Position numbers and translations under genes: made by a program
NCBI GenBank assembly: GCA_044866315.1
Contig: JBIOTX010000233.1
Location: forward strand, 3,444 to 67,443
Direction of reading: 5' to 3'
Length of the DNA: 64,000 nt
Origin: Thermoanaerobaculia bacterium
GTDB taxonomy: Bacteria; Acidobacteriota; Thermoanaerobaculia; Gp7-AA8
Shown here: one piece after another, positions 9,781 through 58,203 of the stretch
Layout of the letters: the number at the start of each line of letters is the position of its first letter
How positions within the stretch are numbered: the first letter of the stretch is position 1
The notes under the pieces: model-generated
The model's database searches: none
Told to the model about the DNA's origin: nothing
Seen by the model: the letters and a program-made list of their open reading frames with translations, nothing else

Positions 9781-9787
9781 CCACGTT

Positions 9788-18197: not shown

Positions 18198-18204
18198 TCA
18201 CGCT

Positions 18205-39301: not shown

Positions 39302-39676
39302 ATGAATCTGACCCGCTTCGAGCTCGAGATCATGGACGTCCTGTGGCGCCTCCGCGAGGCCTCGGTCCGCGAAGTCCGCGACGCCCTGACCGAGAAAAAG
39401 CGTCCCGCCTACACCACCGTGCAGACCATCGTGCAACGCCTGGAACAGAAGGGCGCCGTGCGCCGGACGCGCAAGATCGGCAACGCTCTGATGTTCGAGC
39501 CGGCCATCACGCGCAAGTCGGCGTACCGCCGGGTGGTGGATGAGCTGCTGGCGCTCTTCGGCGGGTCGGCGCGGCCGGTGGTGGCGCACCTGCTCGAGAG
39601 CGGCAAGCTCACCCTCGAGGACCTCAAGGCCCTGGAAGAGGCGTCGGAGAAGAAGCCGAAGGGAGGCCGGAAGTGA
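39302..39676 (+). CDS. BlaI/MecI/CopY-family transcriptional repressor
   Basis: 124 aa. LTRFELEIMDVLW...REV...YTTVQTIVQRLEQKG is the classic winged-helix N-terminus of the family. Confidence 0.9.
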   Translation: MNLTRFELEIMDVLWRLREASVREVRDALTEKKRPAYTTVQTIVQRLEQKGAVRRTRKIGNALMFEPAITRKSAYRRVVDELLALFGGSARPVVAHLLESGKLTLEDLKALEEASEKKPKGGRK

Positions 39677-41196: not shown

Positions 41197-41207
41197 GCCG
41201 TTACGAT

Positions 41208-41310
41208 GTGTGTCATCCCGAGCGGGAGCGAGGGACCTGGGCGGGTGGGAGGCACGAGACGCCCGCCACCGCCCGCCCAGGTCCCTCGACGAACGCTCGG
41301 GATGACACAC
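41208..41310. repeat. near-perfect palindrome of about 103 bp filling the intergenic space
   Basis: GTGTGTCATCCCGAGCG...CGAGGGACCTGGGCGG...CCGCCCAGGTCCCTCG...CGCTCGGGATGACACAC. It begins 12 nt after the BlaR1-like stop and ends 1 nt before the next ATG. Confidence 0.85.
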
Positions 41311-41311
41311 G

Positions 41312-42520
41312 ATGAATGACGCCGCAGCCGCATACGTGAAGCTCGTCCTGTCCATGGGCGAGCATGACCCCGACTACGTCGACGCCTATTACGGTCCACC
41401 GGAGTGGCGCGAGGAGATTCGCGCCACTCCCCCTTCCCTATCCGCGATCCACGACGACGCGCTGCGCCTGCGCGATCGGCTGGACGCGATCGCGCGGCCG
41501 TCCGATCCGATCGAGTCGCTCCGCCTCGACTACCTCCGCCGCCAGACCGCCGCGCTCATCGCCCGCTGCGAGATGCTGCAGGGAAGGCGCTTCCGCTTCG
41601 ACGAGGAGTCGAAGGCGCTCTACGACGCCGTCGCGCCGACGTATTCCGAGGGGTACTTCCGGGAGCTGAATGCGGCGATCGAGAACGAGCTGCCGGGCAG
41701 CGGACGCCTCGTCGACCGGGTGGAGGCGTTCCGGATGGAGTTCGTCATCCCGCGCGAGAAGCTCGATGCCGTCTTCGGCAAGGCCATCGACGTCTGCCGG
41801 GCCAGGACCATGGAGCAGATGGCCCTGCCGGTCGGGGAGTCGTTCACGGTCGAGTACGTGAACAACAAGTCGTGGAGCGGCTACAACTGGTACCAGGGCG
41901 GCTTCAAGAGCCTGATCCAGGTCAACACCGACCTGCCGATCTTCATCGACCGGGCCATCGACCTGGCCTGCCACGAGGGCTATCCCGGGCATCACGTCTA
42001 CAACTCGCTGCTGGAGAAGTCGCTGGTGCGCGACCGCGGCTGGGTCGAATTCTCCGTCTACGCGCTCTTCTCCGCGCAGTCGCTGATCGCCGAGGGGAGC
42101 GCGAACTACGGCATCGACGTGGCGTTCCCGGCGCGCGAGCGGGTGGAGATGGAGGAAGCCGCGCTCTTCCCGCTGGCCGGCCTCGACTCCACGCGCGCCG
42201 CGCAGTACTACCGCGTCTACGAACTCGTCTCCCGCACCAGCTACGCCGGCAACGAAGCCGCGCGGCGCTACCTCGACGGAGAGTTTGATGTGGACCAGGC
42301 CGTGGAGTGGCTGGCGGCGTACGCGCTCATGGCCCCCGAGCGCGCGCGCCAGCGCGTGCGCTTCTTCGACCAGTACCGCAGCTACGTCATCAACTACAAC
42401 TTCGGCAAGGACCTGGTGAAGGAGTACGTGGAGCGGCGTGCGGGAGGGGACGCGCAGAAGCGATGGGACGTGTTCGCGGAACTGCTGTCGTCGCCGCGGC
42501 TGCCGTCAGGACTGACGTGA
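41312..42520 (+). CDS. DUF885-like protein (HEGYPGHH motif)
   Basis: 402 aa. CHEGYPGHHVYN resembles the HE..PGHH signature of DUF885. The protein is shorter than typical members. The start is uncertain because the upstream palindrome leaves no room for an RBS. Confidence 0.6.
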   Translation: MNDAAAAYVKLVLSMGEHDPDYVDAYYGPPEWREEIRATPPSLSAIHDDALRLRDRLDAIARPSDPIESLRLDYLRRQTAALIARCEMLQGRRFRFDEESKALYDAVAPTYSEGYFRELNAAIENELPGSGRLVDRVEAFRMEFVIPREKLDAVFGKAIDVCRARTMEQMALPVGESFTVEYVNNKSWSGYNWYQGGFKSLIQVNTDLPIFIDRAIDLACHEGYPGHHVYNSLLEKSLVRDRGWVEFSVYALFSAQSLIAEGSANYGIDVAFPARERVEMEEAALFPLAGLDSTRAAQYYRVYELVSRTSYAGNEAARRYLDGEFDVDQAVEWLAAYALMAPERARQRVRFFDQYRSYVINYNFGKDLVKEYVERRAGGDAQKRWDVFAELLSSPRLPSGLT

Positions 42521-44043: not shown

Positions 44044-45879
44044 ATGCCGGCCACCTACGGCAACTCGTACGATGTAGTTCTACTCGGTTCGGGCATCGGT
44101 GGGTCGATGCTGGCGTGCATTCTGGCGAAGCACGGCCTGTCCACGCTGCTCATCGAGGAGCTCTCGCATCCCAGGTTCGCCATCGGCGAGTCGCTCATCC
44201 CGGAGACCGGCGTGCGCCTGCGCATCCTCGCGGAGAAGCACGGCGTGCCGGAGATCGGCTGGGTCGGCAGCTTCCACGCTCTGCGCGACAACGTCAGCGC
44301 CGCGTGCGGCGTGAAGCGCTCCTTCTCGTTCATGTACCACCGGGCCGGCGAGCGCCATCGCGCCGAGGAGACCAACCAGCTCCCGACGCTCACGCCGCCG
44401 TTCGGACCGGACTCGCATCTCTTCCGCCAGGACGTCGACGGCTACCTGGCCTCGATGGCGGTGAAGTACGGTGCGCACTTCCGCCAGCAGGTGAAGATCG
44501 CGAAGATCGAGTTCCAGCCGGACCAGGTGCGGCTCACCACCGACAAGGGCGAGGAGATCCGCGCCGCGTTCCTCATCGACGCCGGCGGCATGCGCTCGCA
44601 CATGGCCACGCAGTTCAACCTGCGCGATCCGGAGCCGCGCTTCAAGACCAACACCCGCGCGCTCTACACGCACATGATGGACGTGAGGCCGGCCGACCTC
44701 CTGGTCGAGGGCAATCACGGCCTCCCCTCCCCCCTCGGCCAGGCCACCATGCATCACATCTTCGACGGCGGCTGGATCTGGATCATCCCCTTCAACAACC
44801 ACCGCGAGTCGACGAACCCGCTGACCAGCGTCGGGATGATGCTCGACCGCCGCAAGTACCCGACGCCCGAGGGCTCGCCGGAAGAGGAGTTCCGCCGCAT
44901 CATCAGCCGCTTCCCGACCATCCGGAAGCACTTCGCCGACGCCCGCCCGGTGCGGCCGTGGGTCGGCAGCGGGCGCATTCAGTACTCGCAGGCGCACTGC
45001 ATCGGCCCGCGCTGGATCCAGCTCCCGCACGCGGCGAACTTCGTCGACCCGCTCTTCTCCAGCGGCCTCTCCGTGCTCACCGTGGCCGTCGACCTGATGG
45101 CCGACGCGCTGCTGCGCGCCTTCGCCGACAACGACTTCGCCGTGGAGCGCTTCCAGCGCGTCGAGGACGTGGTCAACACCGGCTTCGACCACTACGACCT
45201 CATCGTCCACAAGTCCTTCGACTCCTTCGCCAGCTACGACCTCTGGAACGCCTGGAACCGCAACTGGGTAATGGGCAACTTCCTGGGCACGTTCGGCGCG
45301 TTCAAGATGCTCCTCGAGTACCTGCGCACCGGCGAACCGCGGTTCCTGGAGAAAACCACCGAGCCGGGACGCATCGGTGTGCTCAGCAGCCACCTGCCCG
45401 AGGTGCGCGCGGCCATGGATGCCTCGGCGAGCGACATCGAAGAGGCCCTGGCGGGGCGGATGATGCATTCCGAGGCCAGCGCGCGGATCTTCGCCCGCCT
45501 CGGCGGTCTGAAGTTCCTGCCGAAGTACATGGGCTTCGGCGATCCGTCCCATCGCGCGCCGTCGACGTTCACGCTGCAGACCGGCGCGCGCCACGTGCTC
45601 TGGTATCGCTATCAGGGCGACAAGAAGTGGCGCGACTACGCGAGCTTCAGCCTCCTCACCTACGCCCGGCAGGTCCTCGGGTTCATGGCCCGTGAGACGG
45701 GCGACTCCGCGCGCCGCTTCCGCACCGCCGTGCGCGACGTCTTCTTCGCCGGGAACGAGGACTGGCACTACACGCCGAACGCGCTGCGCGCGCACGGCCG
45801 GTATCACCTGCCCTTCGAGGCGGACAGCGCGGCGGACGAGGCGATCGAAGCTCCGGCCATCCAGCACGCAACAAAATGA
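44044..45879 (+). CDS. flavin-dependent halogenase
   Basis: GGAGG lies 6 nt upstream of the ATG at 44044. It has GxGxxG (LLGSGIGGS), the halogenase-specific WxWxIP (GGWIWIIPF), and the Fx.Px.Sx.G motif (FVDPLFSSGLS). Confidence 0.8.
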   Translation: MPATYGNSYDVVLLGSGIGGSMLACILAKHGLSTLLIEELSHPRFAIGESLIPETGVRLRILAEKHGVPEIGWVGSFHALRDNVSAACGVKRSFSFMYHRAGERHRAEETNQLPTLTPPFGPDSHLFRQDVDGYLASMAVKYGAHFRQQVKIAKIEFQPDQVRLTTDKGEEIRAAFLIDAGGMRSHMATQFNLRDPEPRFKTNTRALYTHMMDVRPADLLVEGNHGLPSPLGQATMHHIFDGGWIWIIPFNNHRESTNPLTSVGMMLDRRKYPTPEGSPEEEFRRIISRFPTIRKHFADARPVRPWVGSGRIQYSQAHCIGPRWIQLPHAANFVDPLFSSGLSVLTVAVDLMADALLRAFADNDFAVERFQRVEDVVNTGFDHYDLIVHKSFDSFASYDLWNAWNRNWVMGNFLGTFGAFKMLLEYLRTGEPRFLEKTTEPGRIGVLSSHLPEVRAAMDASASDIEEALAGRMMHSEASARIFARLGGLKFLPKYMGFGDPSHRAPSTFTLQTGARHVLWYRYQGDKKWRDYASFSLLTYARQVLGFMARETGDSARRFRTAVRDVFFAGNEDWHYTPNALRAHGRYHLPFEADSAADEAIEAPAIQHATK

Positions 45880-47315
45880 CTGGAAAACCGCAACTTCGTT
45901 GGCGCGGGATCTTTCGAGACCTGCCGCGCGAGCACGGCTATGAGCCGCTGCGCGTCGAGGGAACGCTTCCCGGCGACCTCGAGGGCGTGCTCTATCGCTG
46001 CGGTCCGGCGCGCTTTTCCATCGGCGGCGAGCCGTACCTGCACTGGTTCGACGCCGACGGCGCGGTGAGCGCCGTGCGCGTCGGGCGCGGGGCCGCCGTG
46101 GGCGCGGTGCGCACGGTGGAGACGCGCTGGCTGCGCAAGGAGCGCGCGGCCAACCGCCAGCTCTATCGCAGCTACGCCCAGCTCGGCCGCGGCTGGCGGC
46201 GCTGGCTCACGCTGCCGAAGAACCCCGCGAATATCTCCGTGCTGCCGTACGAGGGACAGGCGCTCGCGCTCTGGGAAGCGGGCCTGCCGATCGCGCTCGA
46301 TCCGGCGACGCTGGACACGCGCGGCGAGACCGACCTGGACGGGCGCATTGGGCCGACGTTCTCCGCACATCCACATTCCGCGGCCGGCCGGCTGTTCAAC
46401 TTCGGCGTCCGCTACGGACGGCGCTTCTCGCTCGATCTGTACGCCTTGGGTGGGATGCCGCGCCGCATCGCTTCGGTGCCGCTGCCGCGCCCGACGATCA
46501 TCCACGACTTCATCGTCACCTCGCGCCACGCGATCTTCTTCTGCGCGCCGATCCGCCTCCGCCTCGGCCGCCTGCTCGCCGGCATGCACAGCTTCAACGA
46601 CAACCTGGCCTGGGAGCCGGAGCACGGCACGGAAGTCGTGGTCGTGCCGCTGGCGACGCCGGACAAGCCCGTGCGCTTCCCCGTGCACCCGTTCTTCCAG
46701 TGGCACTTCGTGAACGCGTGGGAGCAGGGCGGCGCGCTCCTCGTCGATCACATCCCCTACGACGACTTCGAGACCAACGCCTGGTTCGGCCGCGCGCCGT
46801 ACGCGCCGCCCACCGCCCCGCCCCCGTCGCGCTACGCGCGCACGCGCATCGAGCTGTCCTCGAAGCGCATGGTCACCGAGGTGCTCTCGGACATGACCTC
46901 GTGCGAGTTCCCGGCCATCCATCCGAACGACGCGGGGCTCCCCCACCGCAACGTCTGGCTGCTCTGCGACGGGCTGCCGTCGACGCTGCGCTGCTTCGAT
47001 CCGAAGACGCGCACCGTGCGCACGGTGCCCCTCGGCGCCGAGACCGTCCCGAGCGAGCCGACCGTCGTGCCGCGCGCGGGCCATCCCGACGGCTGGGTGC
47101 TCAGCCTGGTCTACGACGGCACGCGGGACGCGAGCTACGTCGCGGTCATCGACGGCGCGCGCCCCGAGGACGGGCCCGTGGCCCGGCTCTGGTTCGACCA
47201 CGCTATTCCCTTTCCCTTTCACGGCGCGTGGGCCTGCCCTGAGCGAAGCCGAAGGGACGCCGTGAATGAAACGTTTGTCGATCGATCCGCACTATCCGGA
47301 GGTAATCAGTCATGA
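45876..47315 (+). CDS. carotenoid-cleavage oxygenase family (RPE65/NOV-like) dioxygenase
   Basis: ATGA overlap with the halogenase gene. Four His-containing motifs are spaced as in CCOs (FSAHPH, IIHDFIVT, FFQWHFVNAW, FPFHGAW). A tail of about 30 aa follows the last motif. Confidence 0.85.
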   Translation: MTGKPQLRWRGIFRDLPREHGYEPLRVEGTLPGDLEGVLYRCGPARFSIGGEPYLHWFDADGAVSAVRVGRGAAVGAVRTVETRWLRKERAANRQLYRSYAQLGRGWRRWLTLPKNPANISVLPYEGQALALWEAGLPIALDPATLDTRGETDLDGRIGPTFSAHPHSAAGRLFNFGVRYGRRFSLDLYALGGMPRRIASVPLPRPTIIHDFIVTSRHAIFFCAPIRLRLGRLLAGMHSFNDNLAWEPEHGTEVVVVPLATPDKPVRFPVHPFFQWHFVNAWEQGGALLVDHIPYDDFETNAWFGRAPYAPPTAPPPSRYARTRIELSSKRMVTEVLSDMTSCEFPAIHPNDAGLPHRNVWLLCDGLPSTLRCFDPKTRTVRTVPLGAETVPSEPTVVPRAGHPDGWVLSLVYDGTRDASYVAVIDGARPEDGPVARLWFDHAIPFPFHGAWACPERSRRDAVNETFVDRSALSGGNQS

Positions 47316-50300
47316 CGACCCCGATCGCCATCGTCGGCGCCGCCTGCCGATATCCCGATGCGTCCTCCCCGTCCGAGCTGTGGGAGAACGTCCTCGCCCA
47401 GCGCCAGTCCTTCCGGAGAATGCCTTCGGAGCGCCTGTCGCTCGAGGACTACTACTCCCCCGACCCGAACGCGCCGGGCTGCACGTACTCGCAGAACGCC
47501 GCGCTGATCACGAACTGGACGTTCGACCGCTCCAGGTACCGCGTGTCGCGCTCCACGTTCGATGCGACCGACCTCGCACACTGGCTGGCTCTCGAGGTCG
47601 CGGATGCCGCTCTGCAGGACGCCGGCTTCGAGCCGCCCGCGGACACGACCGGCGTGATCCTCGGCAACACCCTCACCGGCGACAGCTCGCGCGCCGCGTC
47701 GCTGCGCCTGCGCTGGCCGTACGTCCGCCGCGCCGCGATCAACGCCGGCGCGTCGGATGAGGTGCTGGCGAAGCTCGAGGAGGAGTTCAACGCGCCGTTC
47801 CCGGAGATCGGCGAGGACACCCTCGCCGGCGGACTGTCGAACACCATCGCCGGCCGCATCTGCAACTTCTTCGGCTTCCACGGCGGCGGCTACACCGTCG
47901 ACGGCGCCTGCTCCTCGTCGCTGATCTCGATCATCCACGCCTGCAACTCGCTGGCGTCCGGCGACCTCGACGTCGCCCTGGCCGGCGGCGTCGACCTCAG
48001 CCTCGATCCGTTCGAGCTGATCGGCTTCGCGAAAGCCACGGCCCTCGCGAAAGAGCGCATGTTCGTGTACGACCGGAAGGCGAACGGCTTCCTCCCGGGC
48101 GAAGGCTGCGGCTTCGTGGTGCTGATGCGCCAGGACGACGCGCTCGAGCAGGGCCGCCGCATCTACGCGACGCTCCTCGGCTGGGGCATGTCCTCCGATG
48201 GCCACGGCGGCATGACCCGCCCCGAGGCCAGCGGACAGCGGCTCGCGCTGCAGCGTGCGTATCAGAAAGCCGGGATCCCGATCGACTCCGTGACGCTGTT
48301 CGAAGGCCACGGCACCGGCACCCCGGTCGGCGATCCGATCGAGATCTCCACCGTGCGCTCGCTGCTGCAGTCCGCGAACGGACACCCGCACTTCATCGGC
48401 TCGGTGAAGGCGAACATCGGCCACACCAAGGCCGCCGCGGGCATCGCGGGCCTCATCAAGTCGATGATGGCCGTGCACCACGGCGTCATCCCCCCGATCA
48501 CCGCCTGCGACGAGCCGCGCGACGTCGCTCCGCTGCAGGTCGCCCAGACCGCGCTCCCCTGGCCCGACGACATCCCCCGCCGCGCCGCCGTCAGCGCCAT
48601 GGGCTTCGGCGGCATCAACACCCACGTGGTGCTCGAAGGTGGAGGACAGGCAATCCTGCCTGTCCCTGCGCGGCGCCGTTATGAAGCAGAGCTGTTCCTC
48701 TTCGGCTCCAACAACATCGAAGACCTCCAGACCACCCTGCGCGCCGTCGCCGCCCGCGCCGCCGAGCTCTCCCTCGCCGAGCTGACCGACCTCTCCGCCG
48801 CCCTGCGCGCGCGCATCACCGGCCGCGCCTACCGCGCCGCGATCGTCGCCTCCACGCCGCAGGAGCTCGCCGCCGCCGCGGCCAACACCGCCGCGTTCGG
48901 CGTGCCGCGCCGTCCGAAGATCGCCTTCCTCTTCTCCGGCCAGGGCTCGATCCCGAACGTGACCACCGACGTCGCCCAGCCGGCGATCGTGAAGGCCTCG
49001 GTCGCGCGCCTCAAGGACCTGCACCGCCTCGGCATTCACGCCCACTGCACGATCGGCCACTCCCTCGGCGAGCTGACCGCGCTGTACTGGAGCGGGGCGC
49101 TCGACGAGCAGCAGCTGATCGACCTGGCCACCTTCCGCGGCGAGGCCATGCAGCAGCTCGCCGGCGACGGCGGCATGGCCGCGTTGTCCTGCGATGAGAA
49201 TGAGGCCCGCACGCTGCTCGAAGACGGCGTCGTGGTCGCCGCCCTCAACGGACCGCGCCAGACCGTCATCGCCGGACACGGACCGGCCATCGATCGCATC
49301 ATCGACCGCGCCAAGGCCCGCGACATCGGCGCGACGCGCGTGCCCGTCGCCGCCGCCTTCCACTCGCCGATGATGGTCCCCGCCGCCGCGCCGCTGCGCG
49401 ACTACGTCGGCCGGCTCGGCGCGAAGCGCGTCGGCCGCGGCGTCTTCTCCACCGTCACCGGCGACTGGCTGCATCACGACGCGCCGCTGCCGGACCTGCT
49501 GGCCACGCAGCTCACCCTGCCCGTGCGCTTCCGCGAGGCCATCGAGGCCATCGCCCATGAAGCCGATCTCCTCATCGAAGTCGGCCCCGGCCGCGTGCTG
49601 ACCAACCTCGCGTCCTTCGCCTCCGTCCCGGTGGTCTCGTCCGATCGCGTCCTCGACGCCGTCGCCGCCGCCTGGACCGCCGGCGCGGACATCGACGTCG
49701 ACGCCCTGTTCGCGGATCGCTTCTACCGCCCCTTCGATCTCGACGCCCGCCCGACCTTCATCGAGTCGCCCACCGAAAAGTTTCGGAGTGCGGCGGCAAA
49801 GCCGCCGCTTTCCAATCGCCCCGCTCCGGTCACCAAACCGAAGCCCGAGGCTCCTTCCGGCACGACTCTCCGCGAGCTCGTAGCGAAGCACGTCGATCTG
49901 TCCTTGGACCTCGTCCTCCCGACGTCCAAGCTCCTCTCCGACCTCCACCTCAGCTCCATCACCGTCGCCCGTCTCCTCGCTGACGCTGCACGGGCCATGG
50001 GCGTCCCGCCGCTCGCCGACCCGACGTCCTTCGCCAACGCGACCATCGAGGAGGCCACCGCGGCACTCGAAGCATTGCGCGGCGTCGAGGCGCCGCCGCC
50101 CGAGCCGCGGCTCCCCGAGGGCGTGGCCAACTGGCTGCGCGCCTTCCGCATCGACGAAGTCCCGGTGCGGTGTAGTGCACGCCTCCGGCGTGCCCCCCAA
50201 TCTGCGTGGAAGATCCTCGGCGACTGGCCCGAGGCCTCGCAGCGCTTCGAGACCGTCCCCGGCCGCGGCATCATCGCCGTCCTCCCGAAGGACGATCCCG

Positions 50301-52600
50301 ACGCCTGCATCCGGCTCCTGCTCGAGACCCGCGCGCTGGCCGAGAAAGAGCGCCTCGTCGTCGTCCAGGAGGCTCCTTGCGGCTCCGGCTTCGCGCGCAC
50401 GCTGTTCATCGAGAAGCCGAACGTCTCCGTCCGCATCGTCAACGTCCCGCGCCTCGACGCCGCGGCGCTGGAGAACGTCGTCGCCGAGGCCGAGGCCACG
50501 GGCGACTTCTGCGAGGCCATGTATGGAGAGGACGGGATTCGCCGCGAGCCGCGCATCGTGGCCGCTGATGTTCGGCGCACTGAGAGTGCGCCGCTCCACG
50601 CTGAGGATGTTCTGCTCGTGACCGGAGGAGGCAAGGGGATCGGCTTCGAGAGTGCGTTCCATCTGGCCAAGACCACCGGCGCCCGCCTCGTGCTCCTCGG
50701 CCGCTCGAAGGACGACGACGAGCTGCGCGCGAACTTCGCGCGCCTCGAGGCGGCCGGCCTGCCGTACGACTACATCGTCGCCGACGTCACCAAGCCGCTG
50801 CCGCGGTTCGAGAAGGTCACCGCGATCCTGCACGCCGCGGGCACGAACCAGCCGGCGTTGCTCGACGCGCTCGACGACAGTGCGTTCCGCGCCGCCACCG
50901 CGCCGAAGCTCGACGGCCTGCGCAACGTGCTGGACGCCGTCGATCCGAACAGGATCAAGCTCCTCATCACCCTCGGCTCGGTCATCGCCCGCACGGGCAT
51001 GCGCGGCGAGGCCCACTACGCGTTCGCCAACGAGTGGCTCGCGCGCAGAACCGAGGAATTCGGAGCGGCGTACCCGCAGTGCAGGGCCGTCTGCATCGAA
51101 TGGAGCGTGTGGTCCGGCATGGGCATGGGCGAGCGCCTCGGCACGATGGACATGCTGCGCCGCCAGGGCATCACGCCCGTCGCGCCGGACGAGGCGGTCG
51201 CGCTCACGTCGAGGCTCGCCGCCGCGCCGCCCGCCGCCCACGTCATGGCCTGCGGCCGCCTCGGCGATCCGCCGACCATCCGCTTCGCCGACGAGCCGCC
51301 TCCGCTCTATCGCTTCCTCGAGCAGCCGCGCGTCTCCATCCCCGGCGTGGAAGTCATCGCCGATGCCGAGGTGTCGCTGCGGAACGATCCGTACCTCGAG
51401 GACCACGCCTTCAGCGGCGAGCCGCTGCTGCCGGCGGTCATGGGCCTCGAGGCCATGGCCCAGCTCGCGCGCACGGTCTCGGACGAGCTGCCGGTGCGCA
51501 TCGACCGCGTCGAGCTGCTGCATCCGGTGACGCTGGCCACGGTCCGCGTCGCTGCGCTGCAGCGCGGCGGCGAAGTCGACGTCGCCATCCGCACATCGTC
51601 CACCCAGTTCCGGCTCGATCACTTTCGGGCCACGGTTACAGTCGGCGAGCGTCCGGCGCGGCCGCGCATCGCCATCGCTGAAGGCAGCGTCGACCTCGAG
51701 CCGGAGCGCGACCTTTACGGGCCGCTGCTCTTCCACACCGGCCGCTTCCGCGGCGTGCGCCGCTATCGCCGTCTCACCGCCACCGAGTGCGTGGCCGAGA
51801 TCGCGCCGCACCGGGAGTCGCTCTTCCATCGCTACCTCCCCTCCACGCTGCTCCTCGGCGACGCCACCATCCGCGACGCCGCGATCCACGCGCTGCAGGG
51901 CTGCGTGCCCCAGGCGACCGTGCTTCCGGCCGGCATCGACGCGGTCGAGCTCTTCGCGCCTGTCGATGGCGAGACCATCGTCGTCGCGCGCGAGATCTCG
52001 CGCAGTGCGGAGGGCTTCGTCTACGACGTCGACATCGCCGCGCCCGACGGGCAGCTCTTCGAGCGCTGGCATGGCCTCAGGCTCCAGATCGTCGCCTGCC
52101 GCGAGCGCGTCGACGACCTCGCTCCCGCGCTCTGGGCGCCGTTCCTCGAGCGCGAGGTGGGCGTCTCCGTCCGCGTCGCGGCGGCCGAGGAGACGGTGCT
52201 GCATCGCCATGACGGCAAGCCCCTCGCCGCGCACGGACACATCTCCCGCTCGCACGACACCGACGCCGGGGTCACCCTCGCCGTCGCGCACCACACGCCG
52301 GTCGGCGTCGACGTGCAGACCGTGGGCGACCATCCGTGGGACGACATCATCGGCTCGCACGACGGGCCGCTGACCGACGTCTGCATCCGCCTCTCCGGCG
52401 ACGAGCGCCCGCACGCCGCGGCGCGCGTCTGGTCGGCCCGGGAGTCGATGAAGAAGCTCTCCGGCGACGCACTCGTGCCTCTCGTTGTCGACGACGCCGG
52501 CACCCACGGGAGGGTCACCTTCCGCTCCGGCCCGCATCGCATCGACACGTATCTGATGCGCGACTGCGTCGTGGCCGTGGCCCGGGAGAGGAGCGCCTGA
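47312..52600 (+). CDS. PksE-type iterative type I polyketide synthase (KS-AT-ACP-KR-DH-PPTase)
   Basis: 1762 aa, with GGAGG upstream and an ATGA overlap with the CCO gene. Domain motifs:
- KS: DGACSSSL, EGHGTGT, NIGHTKAAAG.
- AT: FLFSGQGS, GHSLGE.
- ACP-like: LSDLHLSSITVARLL.
- KR: VTGGGKGIG.
- DH: LEDHAFSGEPLLP.
- PPTase-like C-terminus: HDGKP...GVDVQ.
The N-terminus (IAIVGAACRYPDASSPSELWENV) closely resembles enediyne PKS sequences as I recall them. Confidence 0.9.
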   Translation: MTTPIAIVGAACRYPDASSPSELWENVLAQRQSFRRMPSERLSLEDYYSPDPNAPGCTYSQNAALITNWTFDRSRYRVSRSTFDATDLAHWLALEVADAALQDAGFEPPADTTGVILGNTLTGDSSRAASLRLRWPYVRRAAINAGASDEVLAKLEEEFNAPFPEIGEDTLAGGLSNTIAGRICNFFGFHGGGYTVDGACSSSLISIIHACNSLASGDLDVALAGGVDLSLDPFELIGFAKATALAKERMFVYDRKANGFLPGEGCGFVVLMRQDDALEQGRRIYATLLGWGMSSDGHGGMTRPEASGQRLALQRAYQKAGIPIDSVTLFEGHGTGTPVGDPIEISTVRSLLQSANGHPHFIGSVKANIGHTKAAAGIAGLIKSMMAVHHGVIPPITACDEPRDVAPLQVAQTALPWPDDIPRRAAVSAMGFGGINTHVVLEGGGQAILPVPARRRYEAELFLFGSNNIEDLQTTLRAVAARAAELSLAELTDLSAALRARITGRAYRAAIVASTPQELAAAAANTAAFGVPRRPKIAFLFSGQGSIPNVTTDVAQPAIVKASVARLKDLHRLGIHAHCTIGHSLGELTALYWSGALDEQQLIDLATFRGEAMQQLAGDGGMAALSCDENEARTLLEDGVVVAALNGPRQTVIAGHGPAIDRIIDRAKARDIGATRVPVAAAFHSPMMVPAAAPLRDYVGRLGAKRVGRGVFSTVTGDWLHHDAPLPDLLATQLTLPVRFREAIEAIAHEADLLIEVGPGRVLTNLASFASVPVVSSDRVLDAVAAAWTAGADIDVDALFADRFYRPFDLDARPTFIESPTEKFRSAAAKPPLSNRPAPVTKPKPEAPSGTTLRELVAKHVDLSLDLVLPTSKLLSDLHLSSITVARLLADAARAMGVPPLADPTSFANATIEEATAALEALRGVEAPPPEPRLPEGVANWLRAFRIDEVPVRCSARLRRAPQSAWKILGDWPEASQRFETVPGRGIIAVLPKDDPDACIRLLLETRALAEKERLVVVQEAPCGSGFARTLFIEKPNVSVRIVNVPRLDAAALENVVAEAEATGDFCEAMYGEDGIRREPRIVAADVRRTESAPLHAEDVLLVTGGGKGIGFESAFHLAKTTGARLVLLGRSKDDDELRANFARLEAAGLPYDYIVADVTKPLPRFEKVTAILHAAGTNQPALLDALDDSAFRAATAPKLDGLRNVLDAVDPNRIKLLITLGSVIARTGMRGEAHYAFANEWLARRTEEFGAAYPQCRAVCIEWSVWSGMGMGERLGTMDMLRRQGITPVAPDEAVALTSRLAAAPPAAHVMACGRLGDPPTIRFADEPPPLYRFLEQPRVSIPGVEVIADAEVSLRNDPYLEDHAFSGEPLLPAVMGLEAMAQLARTVSDELPVRIDRVELLHPVTLATVRVAALQRGGEVDVAIRTSSTQFRLDHFRATVTVGERPARPRIAIAEGSVDLEPERDLYGPLLFHTGRFRGVRRYRRLTATECVAEIAPHRESLFHRYLPSTLLLGDATIRDAAIHALQGCVPQATVLPAGIDAVELFAPVDGETIVVAREISRSAEGFVYDVDIAAPDGQLFERWHGLRLQIVACRERVDDLAPALWAPFLEREVGVSVRVAAAEETVLHRHDGKPLAAHGHISRSHDTDAGVTLAVAHHTPVGVDVQTVGDHPWDDIIGSHDGPLTDVCIRLSGDERPHAAARVWSARESMKKLSGDALVPLVVDDAGTHGRVTFRSGPHRIDTYLMRDCVVAVARERSA
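49785..49810 (+). repeat. REP-like GC palindrome copy 2, embedded in frame in the PKS AT-ACP linker
   Basis: GGAGTGCGGCGGCAAAGCCGCCGCTT encodes ...FRSAAAKPPLS.... It matches the reverse complement of 9027-9052 at 25 of 26 positions. Confidence 0.75.
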
Positions 52601-53181
52601 TGTACCTCGGAGACGTCGAGCACCGGCACGCGCAGAGCCCGTGGGGCTTCGCCGCGGAGGCCATGACCGCGGCCGGGATTCCCGTGCCGCAGATCATGCA
52701 CCTCTTCAACTTCAAGCCCGACCGCACGAAGTTTCTGGCCATGTTCACTCAGGAGGTCATGCGCGGTCCGTCGCCGCTCACGCCCGGGCAGCGCGAGCTC
52801 ATCGCCGCATTCACGTCGCGGATGAGGGACTGCGTGTTCTGAACCGGCGCGCACGCCGCGGTCGCGGCGAAGCTGCTGGAGGATGAGGAGATGGTGAAGT
52901 CGGTCCTGGATGACTATCGAAGCGCGCCGATCGACGCGAAGTTCGCGGCCCTGCTCGTGCTGATCGAGAAGGCCGCGCGCAAGGCGGCCAGCGTGACCCG
53001 TGAAGACGTCGACGCCGTGCGCGCCGCCGGCTGGACGGACGAGTCCATCTACGACGCCATCACCGTCTGCGCGCTCTTCAATTTCTACACGACCTGGGTC
53101 GACGCTTCGGGCGTCGCCGGCATGGACGACTACTCGGCATCCGGACACCGGATGGCCACGGAGGGGTATCTGCGCTCATGA
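52600..53181 (+). CDS. AhpD/CMD-family peroxidase-related protein, candidate selenoprotein (in-frame UGA at 52840-52842)
   Basis: Track ORFs 52336..52842 and 52891..53181 are in the same frame, and the only stop between them is that TGA. The joined sequence reads ...GPSPLTPGQRELIAAFTSRMRDCVF[TGA]TGAHAAVAAKLL...WTDESIYDAITVCALFNFYT.... This places the TGA at the second Cys of the family's CxxCxxxH motif. The start ATG at 52600 overlaps the PKS stop as TGATG. Confidence 0.7.
52854..52869 (+). promoter_or_regulatory. candidate bacterial SECIS hairpin
   Basis: CGCCGCG-GT-CGCGGCG can also be drawn as a 5-bp stem with a CGGTCG loop. It begins 11 nt after the UGA and has G/U in the apical loop. This position and shape are typical of bacterial SECIS elements. 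Confidence 0.55.
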
Positions 53182-53597
53182 GGTACTACGAGTACATGCA
53201 CACCGTCGGCTTCCAGGAGACGAACCTCATCGGGAACGTCTACTACGTCCACTATCTCTCCTGGCAGGGCCGCTGCCGGGAGATGTTCCTCCACGACCAC
53301 GCGCCGGGCGTGCTCGACGACATCGCGAGCGGCCTCAAGCTGGCCACCGTGCGCGTGAACTGCGAGTATGAGGAGGAGCTCCTGGCCTTCGACCGCGTGG
53401 CCGTGCGCATGACCCTCGGCACGCTCAAGCCGAGCGGGATGACCCTGCGCTTCACCTACGTCAAGGTGGGCGAAGACCGCGAGACCATCGCCGCCCGCGG
53501 GGAGATGGAGATCGCCTGCCTGCGCGGCACGGCGATGGTGCCCGTGCCGGACGAGCTGCGCGAGGCGCTACGGCCCTACCGGGAACAGGCGGCGTGA
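53178..53597 (+). CDS. hot-dog fold (4HBT-type) thioesterase, PksE-partner type
   Basis: 139 aa, with an ATGA overlap with the upstream gene. YYEYMHTVGFQETNLIGNVYYVHYLSWQGRCREMFL is as I recall the N-terminus of the SgcE10/CalE7/DynE7 class. Confidence 0.85.
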   Translation: MRYYEYMHTVGFQETNLIGNVYYVHYLSWQGRCREMFLHDHAPGVLDDIASGLKLATVRVNCEYEEELLAFDRVAVRMTLGTLKPSGMTLRFTYVKVGEDRETIAARGEMEIACLRGTAMVPVPDELREALRPYREQAA

Positions 53598-53598
53598 C

Positions 53599-54873
53599 AT
53601 GAGCGCGCTCGCCATCACCCTCCTGCAGATCATCGTCATCGTGATCTGCGGGCGCGCGCTCGGCGCGCTGATGAAACGCCTCGGCCAACCCGCGGTGGTC
53701 GGCGAGATCGCCGCAGGGATCCTCCTCGGTCCGTCAGCGTTCGGCGCGTTCGCGCCAGGCACGTTCGCGCGGGTGTTTCCGGCGGCGAGCCTGCCGACGC
53801 TCCAGTCGCTCAGCCAGATCGGCCTGATCCTGTTCATGTTCCTGGTGGGCCTCCAGTTCGCGCCGGAGCTGTTCCGCGAGCGCAAGCACACGGTGGTCGT
53901 GATCAGTCACAGCAGCATCATCGTGCCGTTCCTGCTCGGCACGGCGCTGGCGCTCTGGCTCTACCCGCGCGTGTCCGATCCCGGCACGAGCTTCCGCAGC
54001 TTCTCCCTCTTCCTCGGCACGGCCATGAGCATCACCGCCTTCCCGGTGCTGGCCCGCATCCTCGAGGACAAGAACTTACTGACGACGAAAATGGGCAACA
54101 ACGTCATCGCCTGCGCGGCGGTGGACGACGTCACGGCGTGGTGCATCCTCGCCTTCGTCGTTGCGCTCGTGCGCGCGGAAAGCACGACCCATCTCGTGGT
54201 CCGGCTGGCCCTGGTCGCGCTGTACGTCCTGGCGATGATCTTCCTCGTTCGCCCGCTGCTGAAGAAGCTCCCACGGGTGAACGAGACCGTCTTCGCCGGA
54301 ATCCTGCTCTTCGTCTTCGCCTCGGCCTGGACGACCGAGCTCCTCCACATCCACGCCCTCTTCGGCGCCTTCCTGGCCGGGGCGATCATGCCCAAGGAGG
54401 CCCAGCTCAGCGAGACCTTGGTCGGTCAGCTGCGCGGCCTGACCACGGTGGTCTTCCTGCCGCTGTTCTTCGCCGTCGCCGGCCTCAACATGAACATCGG
54501 CCTGCTCCGGACGCCGGAGCTCTGGCTCGCCTGCGGGCTCGTGCTCCTGGTGGCCATTGCCGGCAAGTTCGGCGGGGCGACGCTCAGCGCGGCCGCGGTG
54601 GGGATGCCCTGGCGCGACGCCACGGCCATCGGCGTGCTGATGAACACGCGCGGCCTCATGGAGCTGGTCGTCCTGAACATCGGCCTGGAGATCGGCGTGA
54701 TCTCCCGGCCGCTCTACACGATGTGCGTGATCATGGCCCTGGTGACGACGGCGATGACGACGCCGCTGCTCGAATGTCTTCGAGCATCATCTCTACTCGA
54801 TCGCGATGCGTCCGATGCGACACGATCGCCACGCGAATCACGAAGCGCCCGTCCGGCAGCGTCGCCGGGGTGA
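53599..54873 (+). CDS. CPA2-family cation/H+ antiporter
   Basis: It starts 1 nt after the TE stop. The N-terminus LLQIIVIVICGRALGALMKRLGQPAVVGEIAAGILLGPS and about 12 hydrophobic segments are typical of Kef/NapA-type exchangers. Confidence 0.85.
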   Translation: MSALAITLLQIIVIVICGRALGALMKRLGQPAVVGEIAAGILLGPSAFGAFAPGTFARVFPAASLPTLQSLSQIGLILFMFLVGLQFAPELFRERKHTVVVISHSSIIVPFLLGTALALWLYPRVSDPGTSFRSFSLFLGTAMSITAFPVLARILEDKNLLTTKMGNNVIACAAVDDVTAWCILAFVVALVRAESTTHLVVRLALVALYVLAMIFLVRPLLKKLPRVNETVFAGILLFVFASAWTTELLHIHALFGAFLAGAIMPKEAQLSETLVGQLRGLTTVVFLPLFFAVAGLNMNIGLLRTPELWLACGLVLLVAIAGKFGGATLSAAAVGMPWRDATAIGVLMNTRGLMELVVLNIGLEIGVISRPLYTMCVIMALVTTAMTTPLLECLRASSLLDRDASDATRSPRESRSARPAASPG

Positions 54874-56107
54874 GCATCACCCGCTTGCGGGCGTTGATCC
54901 CGCGCAGCAGCTCGCGTGTCGCCGCGTCATCGTCCCGGAAGCGGAAGGCAAGGATGGTCAGCTGCGGCTCGGCCACGATCTCCATGCCGTCCATCTTGCG
55001 CAGCTCGTCGGCGGTGTAGCGGATCAGGTCCAGCTTCTCGTCGAGCTGCTCGCGGAACGGCTCGATGCCGAACATCTTCAGCGGCAGCCAGACCCTCAGG
55101 CCGCGGAAGTCGCGGGAGAGCTCGGGCGAGATCTCGCAGAAGTCGACCAGCTCGTCCGCCTCCTGCATCGCCGGCAGGTAGTCCGCGTGCAGGGAGTGCG
55201 CGAGGCGCAATGCGCGCGTGTCGCGCACGAGCACCGCGCCGGTGCCGAACGGCAGGAAGAGGGTCTTGTGCGGGTCGAGGATGATCGAGTCCGCCTGCTC
55301 GATGCCGCGCAGGACGGACCGTCCTCGCTCGGTGAGCATGAACAGCGCGCCGTACGCACCGTCGATGTGAAACCACATGTCGTTCGCGTACGCGACGCGC
55401 GTGAGGGCCTCGAGGTCGTCGACCGCGCCGGTCGCGGTCGTCCCCGCGCTGCCGGCGACCAGGAACGGCGTCCAGCCGTCCGCGTGGTCGCGGCGGACGG
55501 CCTCTTCGAGCGCGTCGATCCGGATGCGGAACTGCTCGTCCACCGGCAGCTCGCGGACATTCGCGTAAGGGAAGCCGGCCAGATTCGCCGCCTTCTGAAA
55601 CGAGTGGTGGATCTGGTTCGAGCAGTAGAGCGTGCCGCGCAAAAAGTCGTCCGGCAGCAGGGCGCGCCGGGCGGTGACGATGGCAGTGAAGTTCGCCAGC
55701 GATCCGCCGCTGGTGAGGACACCGCCGGACCCGTGCGGAAGGCCGACGATCTCGCAGAACCAGCGGACGACGTTCGCCTCGAGCTGCACGAGCGCCGGCG
55801 CCGCGGCGCAGACGCCCACGTAGCGGTTCACCGCGTCGGCGATGAGATCGGCCACCGCGGAGTGGAAGATGCCGCCACCCGGCACGTAGGCGAGGTAGCC
55901 CGGACCGGCCGCGGTGAACGAGCGCGGAATGGCCTCGTCGAACAGAAAGTCGAGCAGCTTCTCGTACGACTCGCCGCGCTGCGGCAGCGGCTCGATGAGC
56001 GTGCGCGCATATTCGGTCGCCCCCTCGACGTTCATCGCCGGCTGCCGCGGCAGCGACTCGATGTGCGCGACGATGCGCCGCATCGCCTCGTCGACGAGGC
56101 GGCGCAT
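54731..56107 (-). CDS. PLP-dependent group II amino-acid decarboxylase
   Basis: Only the last 458 codons of track ORF 54731..57268 look real, starting at MRRLVDEAM. Motifs are SGGSLANF, HIDGAYG and the PLP-lysine motif ILDPHKTLFLPFGTG. The upstream part of that ORF overlaps the M13 gene in another frame. Confidence 0.85.
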   Translation of the reverse strand: MRRLVDEAMRRIVAHIESLPRQPAMNVEGATEYARTLIEPLPQRGESYEKLLDFLFDEAIPRSFTAAGPGYLAYVPGGGIFHSAVADLIADAVNRYVGVCAAAPALVQLEANVVRWFCEIVGLPHGSGGVLTSGGSLANFTAIVTARRALLPDDFLRGTLYCSNQIHHSFQKAANLAGFPYANVRELPVDEQFRIRIDALEEAVRRDHADGWTPFLVAGSAGTTATGAVDDLEALTRVAYANDMWFHIDGAYGALFMLTERGRSVLRGIEQADSIILDPHKTLFLPFGTGAVLVRDTRALRLAHSLHADYLPAMQEADELVDFCEISPELSRDFRGLRVWLPLKMFGIEPFREQLDEKLDLIRYTADELRKMDGMEIVAEPQLTILAFRFRDDDAATRELLRGINARKRVMLTPATLPDGRFVIRVAIVSHRTHRDRVEMMLEDIRAAASSSPSSPGP

Positions 56108-56139
56108 TTCGTCCGCGTCGGGCTCGAGCGGGTGGCGCG

Positions 56140-58203
56140 CTACCAGATCTTGCAGCGCTCCCCCTCCGGCCTCGTCATCTTCGTTCCCGGCGGGCAGTTC
56201 CAGGCGTCCTGGAACTCGGGCATGTTCTGCACCGTCAGGTTCACGCGCGCCGGTCCCGGCGCGTGCGGGTCGGTCAGCGCTCGCCGCCGCCCTTCCTCGG
56301 CGGCCATGTTCTGGGCCCACACCTGGGCGAAGCCGAGGAAGAAGCGCTGCTCGGGCGTGAAGCCGTCGACGATGCGGCGCTCCTTCCCTTCGAGCGACTT
56401 GCGGTAGGCGCGCAACGCGAGCGTGGCCCCGCCGAGGTCGGCGATGGCCTCGCCGGTGACGAGCTTGCCCTGGAGGTTGATCCCCTCCTCCACGTTCCAC
56501 TCGCCGTACTGCTTCGCAATGCACTCCGCGCTGGCCTGGAAGCGCCGCAGGTCCTCGTCCGTCCACCAGTTCCGCAGGTTCCCCTCGGCGTCGAACTTCG
56601 CGCCCTGGTCGTCGAAGCCGTGAGTCATTTCGTGGCCGATGACCGTGCCGATGCCGCCGTAGTTGTAGGCGTCGTCGGCGTAGGGGTCGTAGAACGGCGG
56701 CTGGAGGATGCCCGCGGGGAAGGTGATGTCGTTGCGCGTCGGGCTGTAGCCGGCGTTGACGGTGGGCGGGGTGAAGAAGCCCCACTCGTTCGGGTCGTCC
56801 GGCTTGCCGACGCGACTCACCGCCCGGCGTACGCGGAACTGCGTCGCGGCGAGGACGTTCTGCGCCAGCGAGTCGCGGCCGATGTCGAGCGTGGTGTAGT
56901 CGATCCACTTGTCGGGGTAGCCGATGCGGCGGCGGAAAGCCTCGAGCTTCTGCAGCGCGGCGGTCTTGGTCTCCGAGCCCATCCAGGTCAGGCTGGGGAT
57001 GTCCTCGCGCAGCGCGGCGATGAGGTTGTCGATCAGCTCGTTCATCTTGGCCTTCGCCTCGGGGGTGAAAGCCTGCTTCACGTACTCCTGCCCGAGGAGC
57101 TCGCCGACGTTCTGGTCGGCGGCGCGGACGCAGCGCTGCCAGCGCGGCTGGATCTCCTTCTGCCCCGACAGGGCCTTGCCGCGGAACTCGAAGTCGGCGT
57201 TCACGAAGGGCGAAGAGAGGTACGGCGCCGCGGCGTCGAGGAGGTCCCAGCGGAGATACGCCTTCCACGACTCCAGCGGCATTTCAGTAAGGAGGCGATT
57301 GGCGTCGCGGATGAACTCCGGCTGGGCGACGTTGAGCGTGCGCAGGTCGCCGAGGCCGAGGGAGGTGAAGAAGCGCGTCCAGTCGAGGGCGGGGGCGATC
57401 GACTGCAGCTCGGAGACGGCGGTGACGTGGTAGACATTCTCCGGATTGCGCTGGTCGACGCGGGCCATCGACGCGCGGGCGAGCTGAGTCTCCAGCGTCA
57501 GCACCCGCTCCGCGTCCGCGGCCGCCTTCGCCGGATCGGCACCGGCGAGCGTGAACAGCCGGGCGATGTGCTCGACGTACTGTTTGCGCGTGGTCTTGAA
57601 GCGCTCGTCGTCGCGGAGATAGTAGTCGCGGTCGGGCAGGCCGAGACCGGCCTGGGAGACGGCGGCGATGATCATCCGGCTGTTCTTGAAGTCGTTCTGG
57701 GCCGAGAAGCGGAAGACCGGTGCGATCCCGCGCTGCTGCATGCGATGGATCTCGTCGACGACTTGCTGCCGGGTCGTGATCGCGGCGATCCGGTCGAGGT
57801 CGGCCTGGATCGGCGAGACTCCCGCGGCCTCGATGGCCCTCTCGTTCGTGCAGGAGGACCAGAAGTCGCCGATCTTCTGCGTCGCGCTGCCGCGCTCCGC
57901 GGCCTTGTCGCCGGCTGCGCCCTCGAGGATCTTCCGCAGCCGGTCGCGATTCCGATCCGCGACTTCCTCGAACCGCCCGTAGCGCGCATAGATCGGCGGA
58001 AGCGGGTGAGCCTTCTGCCAGCCGCCGTTGGCGTACTGGTAGAAGTTGTCGCAGGCCCCGACCGACCGGTCGATGGCCGCGAGGTCGAACCCGTGCGGCG
58101 CGATGAACGCGGGCGGCGGGGGCGGAGGGGGCGGGGCGGGGGCGGGGCGGGTGGCGCAGGCAGCGGCGACCAATAAAGAGAGGAGGAGGGACAGCTTCTT
58201 CAT
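56140..58203 (-). CDS. M13-family (neprilysin-like) zinc metallopeptidase, lipoprotein
   Basis: It has a lipobox (LLVAAAC), NAGYSP, HEMTHGFD and GEAIADLGG. Confidence 0.9.
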   Translation of the reverse strand: MKKLSLLLSLLVAAACATRPAPAPPPPPPPPAFIAPHGFDLAAIDRSVGACDNFYQYANGGWQKAHPLPPIYARYGRFEEVADRNRDRLRKILEGAAGDKAAERGSATQKIGDFWSSCTNERAIEAAGVSPIQADLDRIAAITTRQQVVDEIHRMQQRGIAPVFRFSAQNDFKNSRMIIAAVSQAGLGLPDRDYYLRDDERFKTTRKQYVEHIARLFTLAGADPAKAAADAERVLTLETQLARASMARVDQRNPENVYHVTAVSELQSIAPALDWTRFFTSLGLGDLRTLNVAQPEFIRDANRLLTEMPLESWKAYLRWDLLDAAAPYLSSPFVNADFEFRGKALSGQKEIQPRWQRCVRAADQNVGELLGQEYVKQAFTPEAKAKMNELIDNLIAALREDIPSLTWMGSETKTAALQKLEAFRRRIGYPDKWIDYTTLDIGRDSLAQNVLAATQFRVRRAVSRVGKPDDPNEWGFFTPPTVNAGYSPTRNDITFPAGILQPPFYDPYADDAYNYGGIGTVIGHEMTHGFDDQGAKFDAEGNLRNWWTDEDLRRFQASAECIAKQYGEWNVEEGINLQGKLVTGEAIADLGGATLALRAYRKSLEGKERRIVDGFTPEQRFFLGFAQVWAQNMAAEEGRRRALTDPHAPGPARVNLTVQNMPEFQDAWNCPPGTKMTRPEGERCKIW

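Follow-up and report, generated by a model that had tools for sequence, protein, structure and literature searches.

An enediyne-type polyketide synthase operon of Thermoanaerobaculia with a carotenoid-cleavage-type oxygenase in the slot of the warhead genes

The stretch of DNA analysed here, which we call the window, comprises 64 kb of a 67.5-kb contig (JBIOTX010000233.1) from an uncultured Thermoanaerobaculia bacterium (Acidobacteriota), and has a G+C content of about 67%. Between positions 44044 and 54873 it contains six plus-strand genes that are translationally coupled and that encode, in order, a flavin-dependent halogenase (Hal), a carotenoid-cleavage-type oxygenase (CCO), a PksE-type polyketide synthase (PKS), an AhpD-like protein, a thioesterase (TE) and a CPA2-family antiporter. 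Until now PksE and TE have together been held to be a hallmark of enediyne biosynthesis, always in the company of the warhead genes E3, E4 and E5. The operon is an enediyne-type cassette in which these genes have been exchanged for a CCO; the genomic case for the exchange is solid, the product is predicted, and the organisms concerned are uncultured.

Composition of the operon

The junctions between the six genes (Table 1) are as an earlier note on this DNA had described them, with ATGA start/stop overlaps at 45876, 47312 and 53178, a TGATG overlap (52598-52602) between the PKS and AhpD-like genes, and a TGA-C-ATG junction, with a gap of 1 nt at 53598, between the genes for the TE and the antiporter. 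GGAGG-like ribosome-binding sites lie upstream of the Hal, PKS, AhpD-like and TE genes. Pfam and PDB matches bear out that note's naming of a flavin halogenase with a WxWxIP motif and a four-His CCO and agree with its CPA2 antiporter, and the enediyne signature pair that it had recognized is evident in the PksE domain order and in a TE of the SgcE10/CalE7/DynE7 family.

Table 1. Genes and features of the operon, in window coordinates
Feature	Position	Strand	Basis
Hal, flavin-dependent halogenase, CtcP/PltM subfamily, 611 aa	44044-45879	+	Pfam Trp_halogenase, PDB match
CCO, carotenoid-cleavage-oxygenase family enzyme, 479 aa	45876-47315	+	Pfam RPE65
PksE-type iterative polyketide synthase, 1762 aa	47312-52600	+	KS-AT-ACP-KR-DH-PPTase
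AhpD-like protein (CMD family; peroxidase-related), 193 aa provided that UGA encodes selenocysteine	52600-53181	+	Pfam CMD
In-frame TGA, probable selenocysteine codon	52840-52842	+	Kept in orthologues
Hairpin CGCCGC-GGUC-GCGGCG, candidate apical stem-loop of a bacterial selenocysteine insertion sequence (SECIS)	52854-52869	+	Orthologue alignment
TE, enediyne E10-family hot-dog thioesterase, 139 aa	53178-53597	+	PDB SgcE10/CalE7/DynE7
Probable CPA2-family cation:proton antiporter, 424 aa, consisting of the membrane domain	53599-54873	+	Pfam Na_H_Exchanger

Pfam recognizes KS, AT, KR and DH domains in the PKS; the AT matches that of DynE8 (2.8e-51), and the ACP, with the motif DLHLSSITV, matches the ACP of CalE8 (2l9f, 2e-15). 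Neither Pfam nor the PDB gave a separate match for the C-terminal PPTase region, which is assigned by its Sfp-type motifs, VGVD at residues 1664-1667 and WSARESMKK at 1707-1715. Residues C200, H333, H371, S584, S882, Y1236, H1365, D1667, E1711 and K1715 are invariant in 47 PksE proteins, as is W1707. The 120 best full-length matches all have the PksE architecture, many of them being named 'enediyne polyketide synthase' (JGI), and the score against the PfaA model (455 bits) falls below that model's cutoff of 1010. As judged from its sequence, the window PKS is a complete PksE with an in-cis PPTase and a CalE8-type ACP.

The TE matches SgcE10 (4i4j, 'ACP-polyene thioesterase'; 1.4e-44), CalE7 (1.3e-43) and DynE7 (3.6e-34) in the PDB and has in common with them the segment ETNLxGNVYYVxYLxWQGRCREMFL; it is an unambiguous homologue of these three and an orthologue of SgcE10 and CalE7. 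PKSE and TE together release 1,3,5,7,9,11,13-pentadecaheptaene, a discrete and diffusible intermediate (PMC9992847).

Hal is about 50% identical to CtcP over some 500 residues, with PDB matches to CtcP (7xgb, 7e-115) and PltM (1.2e-95). The motifs GSGIGGS (15-21), GGWIWIIPF (242-250) and FVDPLFSSG (333-341) are all invariant in the Hal alignment (A2), Lys91 aligns with the catalytic lysine of CtcP (Lys98, residue 99 of the 7xgb chain) and of PltM (Lys87), and the C-terminal helical substrate region common to these two enzymes is covered by alignments that extend to Hal residue 503 (CtcP) and 461 (PltM). Motifs and matches together identify Hal as a halogenase of the CtcP/PltM subfamily that has every catalytic motif of that subfamily. 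PltM itself acts on free substrates and can draw on Cl-, Br- and I- (PMC6424973).

The CCO matches the Pfam RPE65 model from end to end (3.8e-103; model positions 5-468 of 469). Its best match in the PDB is the Synechocystis apocarotenoid-15,15'-oxygenase (ACO; 5.8e-49), followed by an archaeal carotenoid cleavage dioxygenase (CCD; 5.3e-40), with weaker matches to lignostilbene dioxygenases (about 1e-22) and RPE65 (1.3e-13). The residues aligned with H183, H238, H304 and H484 of ACO, and with its E150, E370 and E426, are conserved, and H165, H210, H277 and H449 of the CCO are invariant across 29 homologues, down to 46% identity. The enzyme thus retains the 4-His/3-Glu iron site, and its closest relatives are those that cleave apocarotenoids, which are linear polyenes. 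A Vulgatibacter CCO that is 48% identical to that of the window is encoded by a solitary gene and gives no context. Our full-text literature search returned no paper joining enediyne, carotenoid cleavage and polyketide synthase, and no described CCO in an enediyne-type cluster.

The product of the last gene matches Pfam Na_H_Exchanger (1.4e-56) and scores 163.8 bits against TIGR00932, below the cutoff of 238.3; no KTN/RCK domain was found in it.

Relatives of the operon and the warhead genes

E3, E4 and E5 form, with E and E10, the universal enediyne cassette (PMC4480864), and it is they that carry the pentadecaheptaene to the enediyne core (PMC4480864; PMC10760148). When the window was searched by tblastn with the E3, E4 and E5 proteins of the nearest canonical cassette (locus L003), the best value was E 0.17 for E3 and E 0.99 for E4, and E5, the UnbU membrane protein, gave no match with E<1; a Pfam scan of all other window genes found neither the DUF1702 domain that marks E3 nor the UnbV_ASPIC domain that marks E4 (UnbV/ASPIC, FG-GAP). 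The identity of the E5 query is confirmed by its retrieval of proteins named 'enediyne biosynthesis protein E5/UnbU'. The earlier note's statement that nothing of the E3/E4/E5 type resembles a window gene is upheld by both kinds of search, so that no warhead genes adjoin the operon within the window, and none of the three queries matched in any Hal-CCO locus among the relatives.

These relatives come from a scan of species-representative genomes, which gave 13 loci, all in Thermoanaerobaculia or Acidobacteriota metagenome-assembled genomes (MAGs), and from a metagenome scan with the halogenase alignment, which gave 32 further loci; the gene content of the loci was mapped by tblastn. Some 45 proteins that are 68-85% identical to the PKS make up its tight family, beyond which there is a gap to 56, 52, 50 and 47%, and the bulk of 'enediyne polyketide synthases' are 43-47% identical to it. 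In a neighbour-joining tree of 47 full-length PksE proteins, the PKSs of the Hal-CCO loci are monophyletic with 100% bootstrap and nest, also at 100%, with proteins P0045-P0052. The PksE grouping proposed in the earlier note is sustained: in the tree the window PKS nests among the PksEs of E3-E5 cassettes, and by its matches and model scores it groups with PksEs rather than with polyunsaturated fatty acid (PUFA) or modular synthases.

Wherever an in-clade locus extends far enough to reveal the gene order, this is Hal-CCO-PKS-TE, which amounts to about 19 distinct loci, and since these are independent, the arrangement is far beyond chance. The AhpD-like gene lies between the PKS and TE genes in about 7 of 16 loci, and the CPA2 gene follows the TE gene in about 12 of 15 Hal-CCO loci. 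The conserved core is therefore made up of the four genes Hal-CCO-PKS-TE, with the AhpD-like and CPA2 genes facultative, and the conservation of gene order that the earlier note had made a test of its hypothesis is found in many relatives. The flanks of the in-clade loci are partly syntenic, suggesting vertical inheritance.

Three of the loci call for separate mention. One MAG, DASUSN01 (SMAG_U1737), has two Hal-CCO-PKS-TE-CPA2 loci, L005 and L007, the AhpD-like gene being absent from one and present in the other; L005 retains the upstream BlaR1/unk402 genes and L007 the downstream decarboxylase-M13 genes, the alpha/beta hydrolase being the only flanking gene common to both, and the two are either paralogous clusters or derived from two strains binned together. 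In L013, from a long-read MAG, the Hal match falls into two overlapping pieces (4737-6543), and of the PKS (8001-13216) tblastn recovered only the last third, a pattern that suggests frameshifts, assembly errors or decay of that copy.

The loci L003, L024, L025 and L026, whose PKSs are 47-56% identical to that of the window, have the neighbourhood DUF1702(E3)-UnbV(E4)-E5-PKS-[AhpD]-TE, in which E5 overlaps the start of the PKS gene just as the CCO gene does in the window. Because the window PKS nests with outgroups in which E3, E4 and E5 precede the PKS gene and E5 overlaps its start, we regard it as near certain that the operon descends from a canonical cassette with E3-E5 replaced, and this forms the genomic and evolutionary part of the model developed below.

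Homologues of Hal, at 60-69% identity, are found inside canonical E3/E4/E5 cassettes, in the orders Hal-E4-E5-PKS-TE (L049, L058), E4-E5-E3 ... Hal-CPA2-PKS-TE (L046, L047, L054), E3 ... Hal-E4-E5-CPA2 (L051) and E3-Hal (L042, L053). CPA2 homologues (30-43%) occur in some canonical cassettes and AhpD-like orthologues (60-65%) in others. Since homologues of all three sit inside canonical cassettes, Hal, CPA2 and the AhpD-like protein are not warhead substitutes, and are instead recurrent accessories of non-actinobacterial enediyne-type cassettes. The CCO and E3-E5 were never found together in more than 40 loci examined, and the CCO alone is a true replacement for these genes. The earlier view that a halogenase and a CCO stand in the place of warhead genes can consequently be kept for the CCO and has to be given up for the halogenase.

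A second arrangement of the same functions occurs in a more distant lineage, represented by L028 and L041, which encode a PKS of 2556 aa with the order KS-AT-ACP-ACP-KR-DH-PPTase-hot-dog TE, its C-terminal hot-dog domain being homologous to the window TE, followed by Hal (64-69%) and CCO (52-61%). Because these loci assemble the same four functions in another order, they are strong evidence that the four belong to one pathway; selection acts on the Hal-CCO-PKS-TE core in about 19 loci, and the core was put together once more, with a PKS-TE fusion at its centre. Downstream of the CCO gene, both L028 (481-12047) and L041 have a 192-aa open reading frame (ORF) without a family match.

The AhpD-like gene and the surroundings of the operon

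Mechanical ORF calling splits the AhpD-like ORF at an in-frame TGA (Table 1), and the ORF is a single gene only if this codon is read as selenocysteine (Sec). With Cys placed at the stop, the protein matches Pfam CMD (5.2e-10) and NCBIfam TIGR01926 (88.1 bits against a cutoff of 81.8); the AhpD-like identity given in the earlier note stands, although the in-frame TGA was overlooked there. The TGA occupies the second redox position of a CxxC-type motif, which reads C-V-F-U-T-G-A-H in the window and C-x-F-U-x-G-x-H in the orthologues, and it is found at the same place in all 11 of these, from Hal-CCO and canonical loci alike. The reading frame downstream of the TGA is likewise kept in 11 of 11, and the 60-83% identity of the proteins extends beyond the TGA. 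Gene callers split the AhpD-like gene in two, for example into 83 and 81 aa in L003.

A hairpin with a 6-bp stem and a GGUC loop takes up the 16 nt that start 14 nt past the U of the TGA (14-29 nt), and these are invariant in the 11 orthologues except for one closing-pair substitution in L012. There are 21 four-fold degenerate codons at which the amino acid is invariant, and the third base is frozen in five of them, four of which are consecutive codons of the hairpin (4/5 within the hairpin against 1/16 elsewhere; hypergeometric p ~0.004). The pattern is that expected of a bacterial SECIS, and in its GGUC loop and its spacing the candidate element resembles that of Escherichia coli fdhF. An Rfam search matched no SECIS family to the hairpin, and RNAalifold, applied to the orthologues, showed invariance only, with no covariation or compensatory changes. 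SelA, SelB, SelC and SelD are not encoded in the window, whose tRNAs are tRNA-Glu and tRNA-Lys only. The NCBIfam '(seleno)protein' model NF041238 (AhpD_rel_CFYUT) matches weakly, with 44.6 bits against a cutoff of 175. Because the TGA is kept in all 11 orthologues and is followed by a conserved hairpin, the AhpD-like gene probably encodes a selenoprotein. AhpD-like selenoproteins are a known kind (NF041238), and one inside a PKS cassette is, to our knowledge, new.

The other genes of the window include a BlaI-BlaR1-402-aa operon and genes for an alpha/beta hydrolase, a pyridoxal phosphate (PLP) decarboxylase, an M13 peptidase, signalling proteins, an RHS giant, a DUF11-repeat protein and a LanC-kinase. 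Upstream, at 39302-42520, three genes form a unit. They encode a repressor of the BlaI type (39302-39676), a sensor-protease (BlaR1/M56) that includes an STN/secretin-N domain (39673-41196) and a 402-aa protein that is conserved but matches no family (41312-42520), and in many relatives the unit is found in synteny at the same place, upstream of the operon. The alpha/beta hydrolase encoded upstream and the 402-aa protein were considered as members of the cluster, and we rejected both, as they are variable among loci or part of the BlaI-BlaR1 operon and point to no specific family. In L001, on a contig of 5.03 Mb, the position of the window's alpha/beta hydrolase is taken by a tyrosinase of the polyphenol-oxidase type (5045-6409, minus strand), divergent from Hal.

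Downstream, the PLP-dependent group II decarboxylase (54731-56107, minus strand; Pfam Pyridoxal_deC 1.5e-65) is convergent with the operon, and its gene and the CPA2 gene have about 140 nt in common at their 3' ends. 'orf533' (54806-56407, plus strand, 533 aa), a candidate for a conserved downstream gene, proved to be an antisense shadow of this decarboxylase. At 5528-8020 on the minus strand there is a protein with kinase and LanC-like domains that resembles a class III/IV lanthipeptide synthetase, flanked by unannotated ORFs at 3145-5521 and 7819-9060, and a similar LanC-kinase gene adjoins the canonical enediyne cassette in L025 (18515-20830). Giant surface-type proteins are encoded on the minus strand at 9788-18274 and 25835-29983; the larger (2828 aa) has RHS repeats and VWA, PKD and Big_1 domains, and the other (1382 aa) has 11 DUF11 repeats.

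Predicted pathway and relation to known systems

We propose that the operon is a derived enediyne-type cassette of a Thermoanaerobaculia lineage, in which E3-E5 were lost, a CCO was inserted at the same spot, and a polyene is halogenated and then cleaved. PksE and TE would together yield a free, conjugated, pentadecaheptaene-type polyene, and Hal would halogenate this electron-rich chain. The CCO, with O2, would then cut an internal C=C bond, so that polyenals of shorter length, perhaps halogenated, would arise in place of a polyyne or enediyne. More speculatively, the Sec-containing AhpD-like protein, where present, might handle peroxide and redox stress around the oxidation-prone polyene, and the Kef-like CPA2 antiporter might serve in protection from, or export of, the electrophilic product. 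The operon thus probably makes a different, possibly halogenated short polyene rather than an enediyne. The chemistry suggested in the earlier note, a PksE polyene that would be cleaved, halogenated or both, agrees with all of these observations. Taken as a whole we lean towards this proposal, albeit by a small degree, and its chemical part, considered separately, could fall about equally well to either side.

Several points weigh against it. The substrates of Hal and the CCO are predicted from gene linkage together with family resemblance, and the characterised halogenases of the CtcP/PltM type take phenolic or enolic aromatic substrates, not polyenes. No flavin reductase partner for Hal is present among the window genes; such halogenases are often supplied with their reductases in trans, and absence nearby is not disqualifying. 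Identity between the CCO and ACO amounts to no more than about 30%, and the family to which both belong also holds stilbene-cleaving and isomerase members. The PksE tree was built without full-length SgcE, CalE8 and DynE8, the characterised references being limited to the DynE8 AT and the CalE8 ACP. The absence of E3-E5 in the relatives covers flanks of up to 10 kb, not whole genomes, and the search with the E5 protein was saturated by closer matches, making it weakly informative about E5 elsewhere in Hal-CCO genomes.

Four other explanations have to be weighed. The polyene could itself be the end product, a membrane pigment or antioxidant, with Hal and the CCO acting on a carotenoid, stilbenoid or phenolic and the co-transcription being regulatory. 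Characterised CtcP/PltM enzymes do halogenate phenolics, CCOs normally cleave carotenoids or stilbenes, and the tyrosinase that adjoins the operon in L001 would fit such a role; however, the window has no carotenoid or aromatic biosynthesis genes, the start/stop overlaps are tight, the Hal-CCO-PKS-TE order is kept in about 19 loci while the flanks and the AhpD-like and CPA2 genes vary, and the same four functions have been reassembled in another order around a fused PKS-TE. We consider this explanation unlikely.

Rather less likely again is a pathway in which the operon still feeds enediyne or polyyne synthesis, E3, E4 and E5 acting in trans from elsewhere in the genome and Hal and the CCO tailoring the product. 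Against it, E3-E5 adjoin their own PKS gene in all described and all sampled cassettes, the CCO and E3-E5 do not co-occur in any of more than 40 loci, 64 of the 67.5 kb of the window's contig are free of E3-E5, and none of the 120 best E5 matches lies on the large Hal-CCO contigs, such as those of 5.03 Mb and 524 kb, this last being weak evidence. It can draw on the presence of canonical E5/UnbU genes in some Thermoanaerobaculia MAGs (P0353), on the Hal homologues that accompany E3-E5 in other lineages, and on the diffusibility of pentadecaheptaene, which complements in trans (PMC9992847).

A similarly low probability attaches to a CCO that isomerises or otherwise oxidises the polyene, in the manner of RPE65 or NinaB or by epoxidation, so that a halogenated C15 compound, cyclised or rearranged, would result. 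The family does include isomerohydrolases and isomerooxygenases that share the 4-His site (RPE65 and a carotenoid isomerooxygenase were among the matches), and the gene sits in the slot of E3-E5, which remodel the chain rather than shorten it, but the closest solved relatives, ACO and the archaeal CCD, cleave apocarotenoids, and the match to RPE65 is far weaker. That the operon is a decaying, functionless remnant of an enediyne cassette, with the TGA of the AhpD-like gene a real stop, is very improbable in spite of that in-frame stop and the absence of the AhpD-like and CPA2 genes from some loci, given that the catalytic residues of PKS, Hal, CCO and TE are all intact, that the proteins are 68-91% identical across many MAGs, and that the TGA is shared by 11 of 11 orthologues with a conserved downstream protein and frozen synonymous sites in the hairpin.

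The proposal of a polyene that is halogenated and then cleaved can be taken further, if tentatively. Gui et al. are said to have reported, in 2024, iodoheptaene and a diiodotetrayne as products of the cassette, and on that account polyene halogenation would be an early step in canonical pathways; our literature search on iodoheptaene and cryptic iodination gave no match. Hal, here and in the non-actinobacterial canonical cassettes, might then be a dedicated polyene (heptaene) halogenase, the flavin-dependent counterpart of cryptic halogenation, and the CCO of this clade might be the first known to act on a polyketide, the outcome being a new class of short halogenated polyenals made with the help of a selenoprotein. 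We think this fuller version doubtful.

If the proposal is true, PksE chemistry has been recruited for a non-enediyne product, which would provide a natural experiment on the fate of the heptaene without E3-E5, and a rule by which genome miners could separate true enediyne clusters from look-alikes labelled 'enediyne'. The occurrence of the Hal subfamily in canonical cassettes of uncultured soil bacteria also offers a concrete candidate enzyme for polyene halogenation, and a selenoprotein gene between those for the PKS and TE is an unexpected accessory of the cassette. A published survey describes many uncharacterised non-actinobacterial enediyne KS clades, and the Hal-CCO architecture is not described in it (PMC10308959).

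The individual proteins can each be set beside a known system. The AhpD-like protein resembles the bacterial selenoproteins of NF041238 in its CMD fold, in a CxxU motif that reads CVFUT where theirs reads CFYUT, and in a UGA that precedes a hairpin, and differs from them as a single-domain protein of 193 aa that scores below the model cutoff and whose gene is embedded between those for the PKS and TE. Hal has the catalytic Lys, the WxWxIP and GxGxxG motifs and a C-terminal helical region in common with CtcP (chlortetracycline) and PltM (pyoluteorin pathway), enzymes that take free rather than carrier-bound substrates; it differs in an extra tail of about 100 aa, which is conserved inside its own clade, and in having a PksE cassette as its genomic partner, from which its substrate is predicted. 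The CCO resembles ACO (2biw) and other carotenoid cleavage oxygenases in its RPE65 fold match, 4-His site and 3-Glu second shell; the substrate of ACO is a linear conjugated polyene and that of the CCO is presumed to be a polyketide polyene, its gene lying in a PKS operon and not in a carotenoid context.

As a whole the operon is most readily compared with the minimal enediyne PKS cassettes SgcE-SgcE10 (C-1027), CalE8-CalE7 (calicheamicin) and DynE8-DynE7 (dynemicin), with which it shares the KS-AT-ACP-KR-DH-PPTase order, a TE that is about 55-60% identical to those of the SgcE10/CalE7 type, the tight coupling of its genes and a PKS that lies phylogenetically within the PksE radiation. It departs from them in that the CCO and Hal occupy the upstream slot of E3 (DUF1702), E4 (UnbV/ASPIC) and E5 (UnbU), in a PKS with about 150 aa fewer than is usual for PksEs, the difference being spread over linkers, and in a host that belongs to the Acidobacteriota rather than the Actinomycetota. 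Closer still are the canonical acidobacterial and soil cassettes (L003, L024, L025, L026 and L046-L058), which keep E3-E4-E5 and are without the CCO; L003, L024 and L025 have the same AhpD-like gene, with its probable Sec codon, between PKS and TE, and L046-L058 have the same halogenase subfamily (60-69%), together in some cases with a CPA2 gene.

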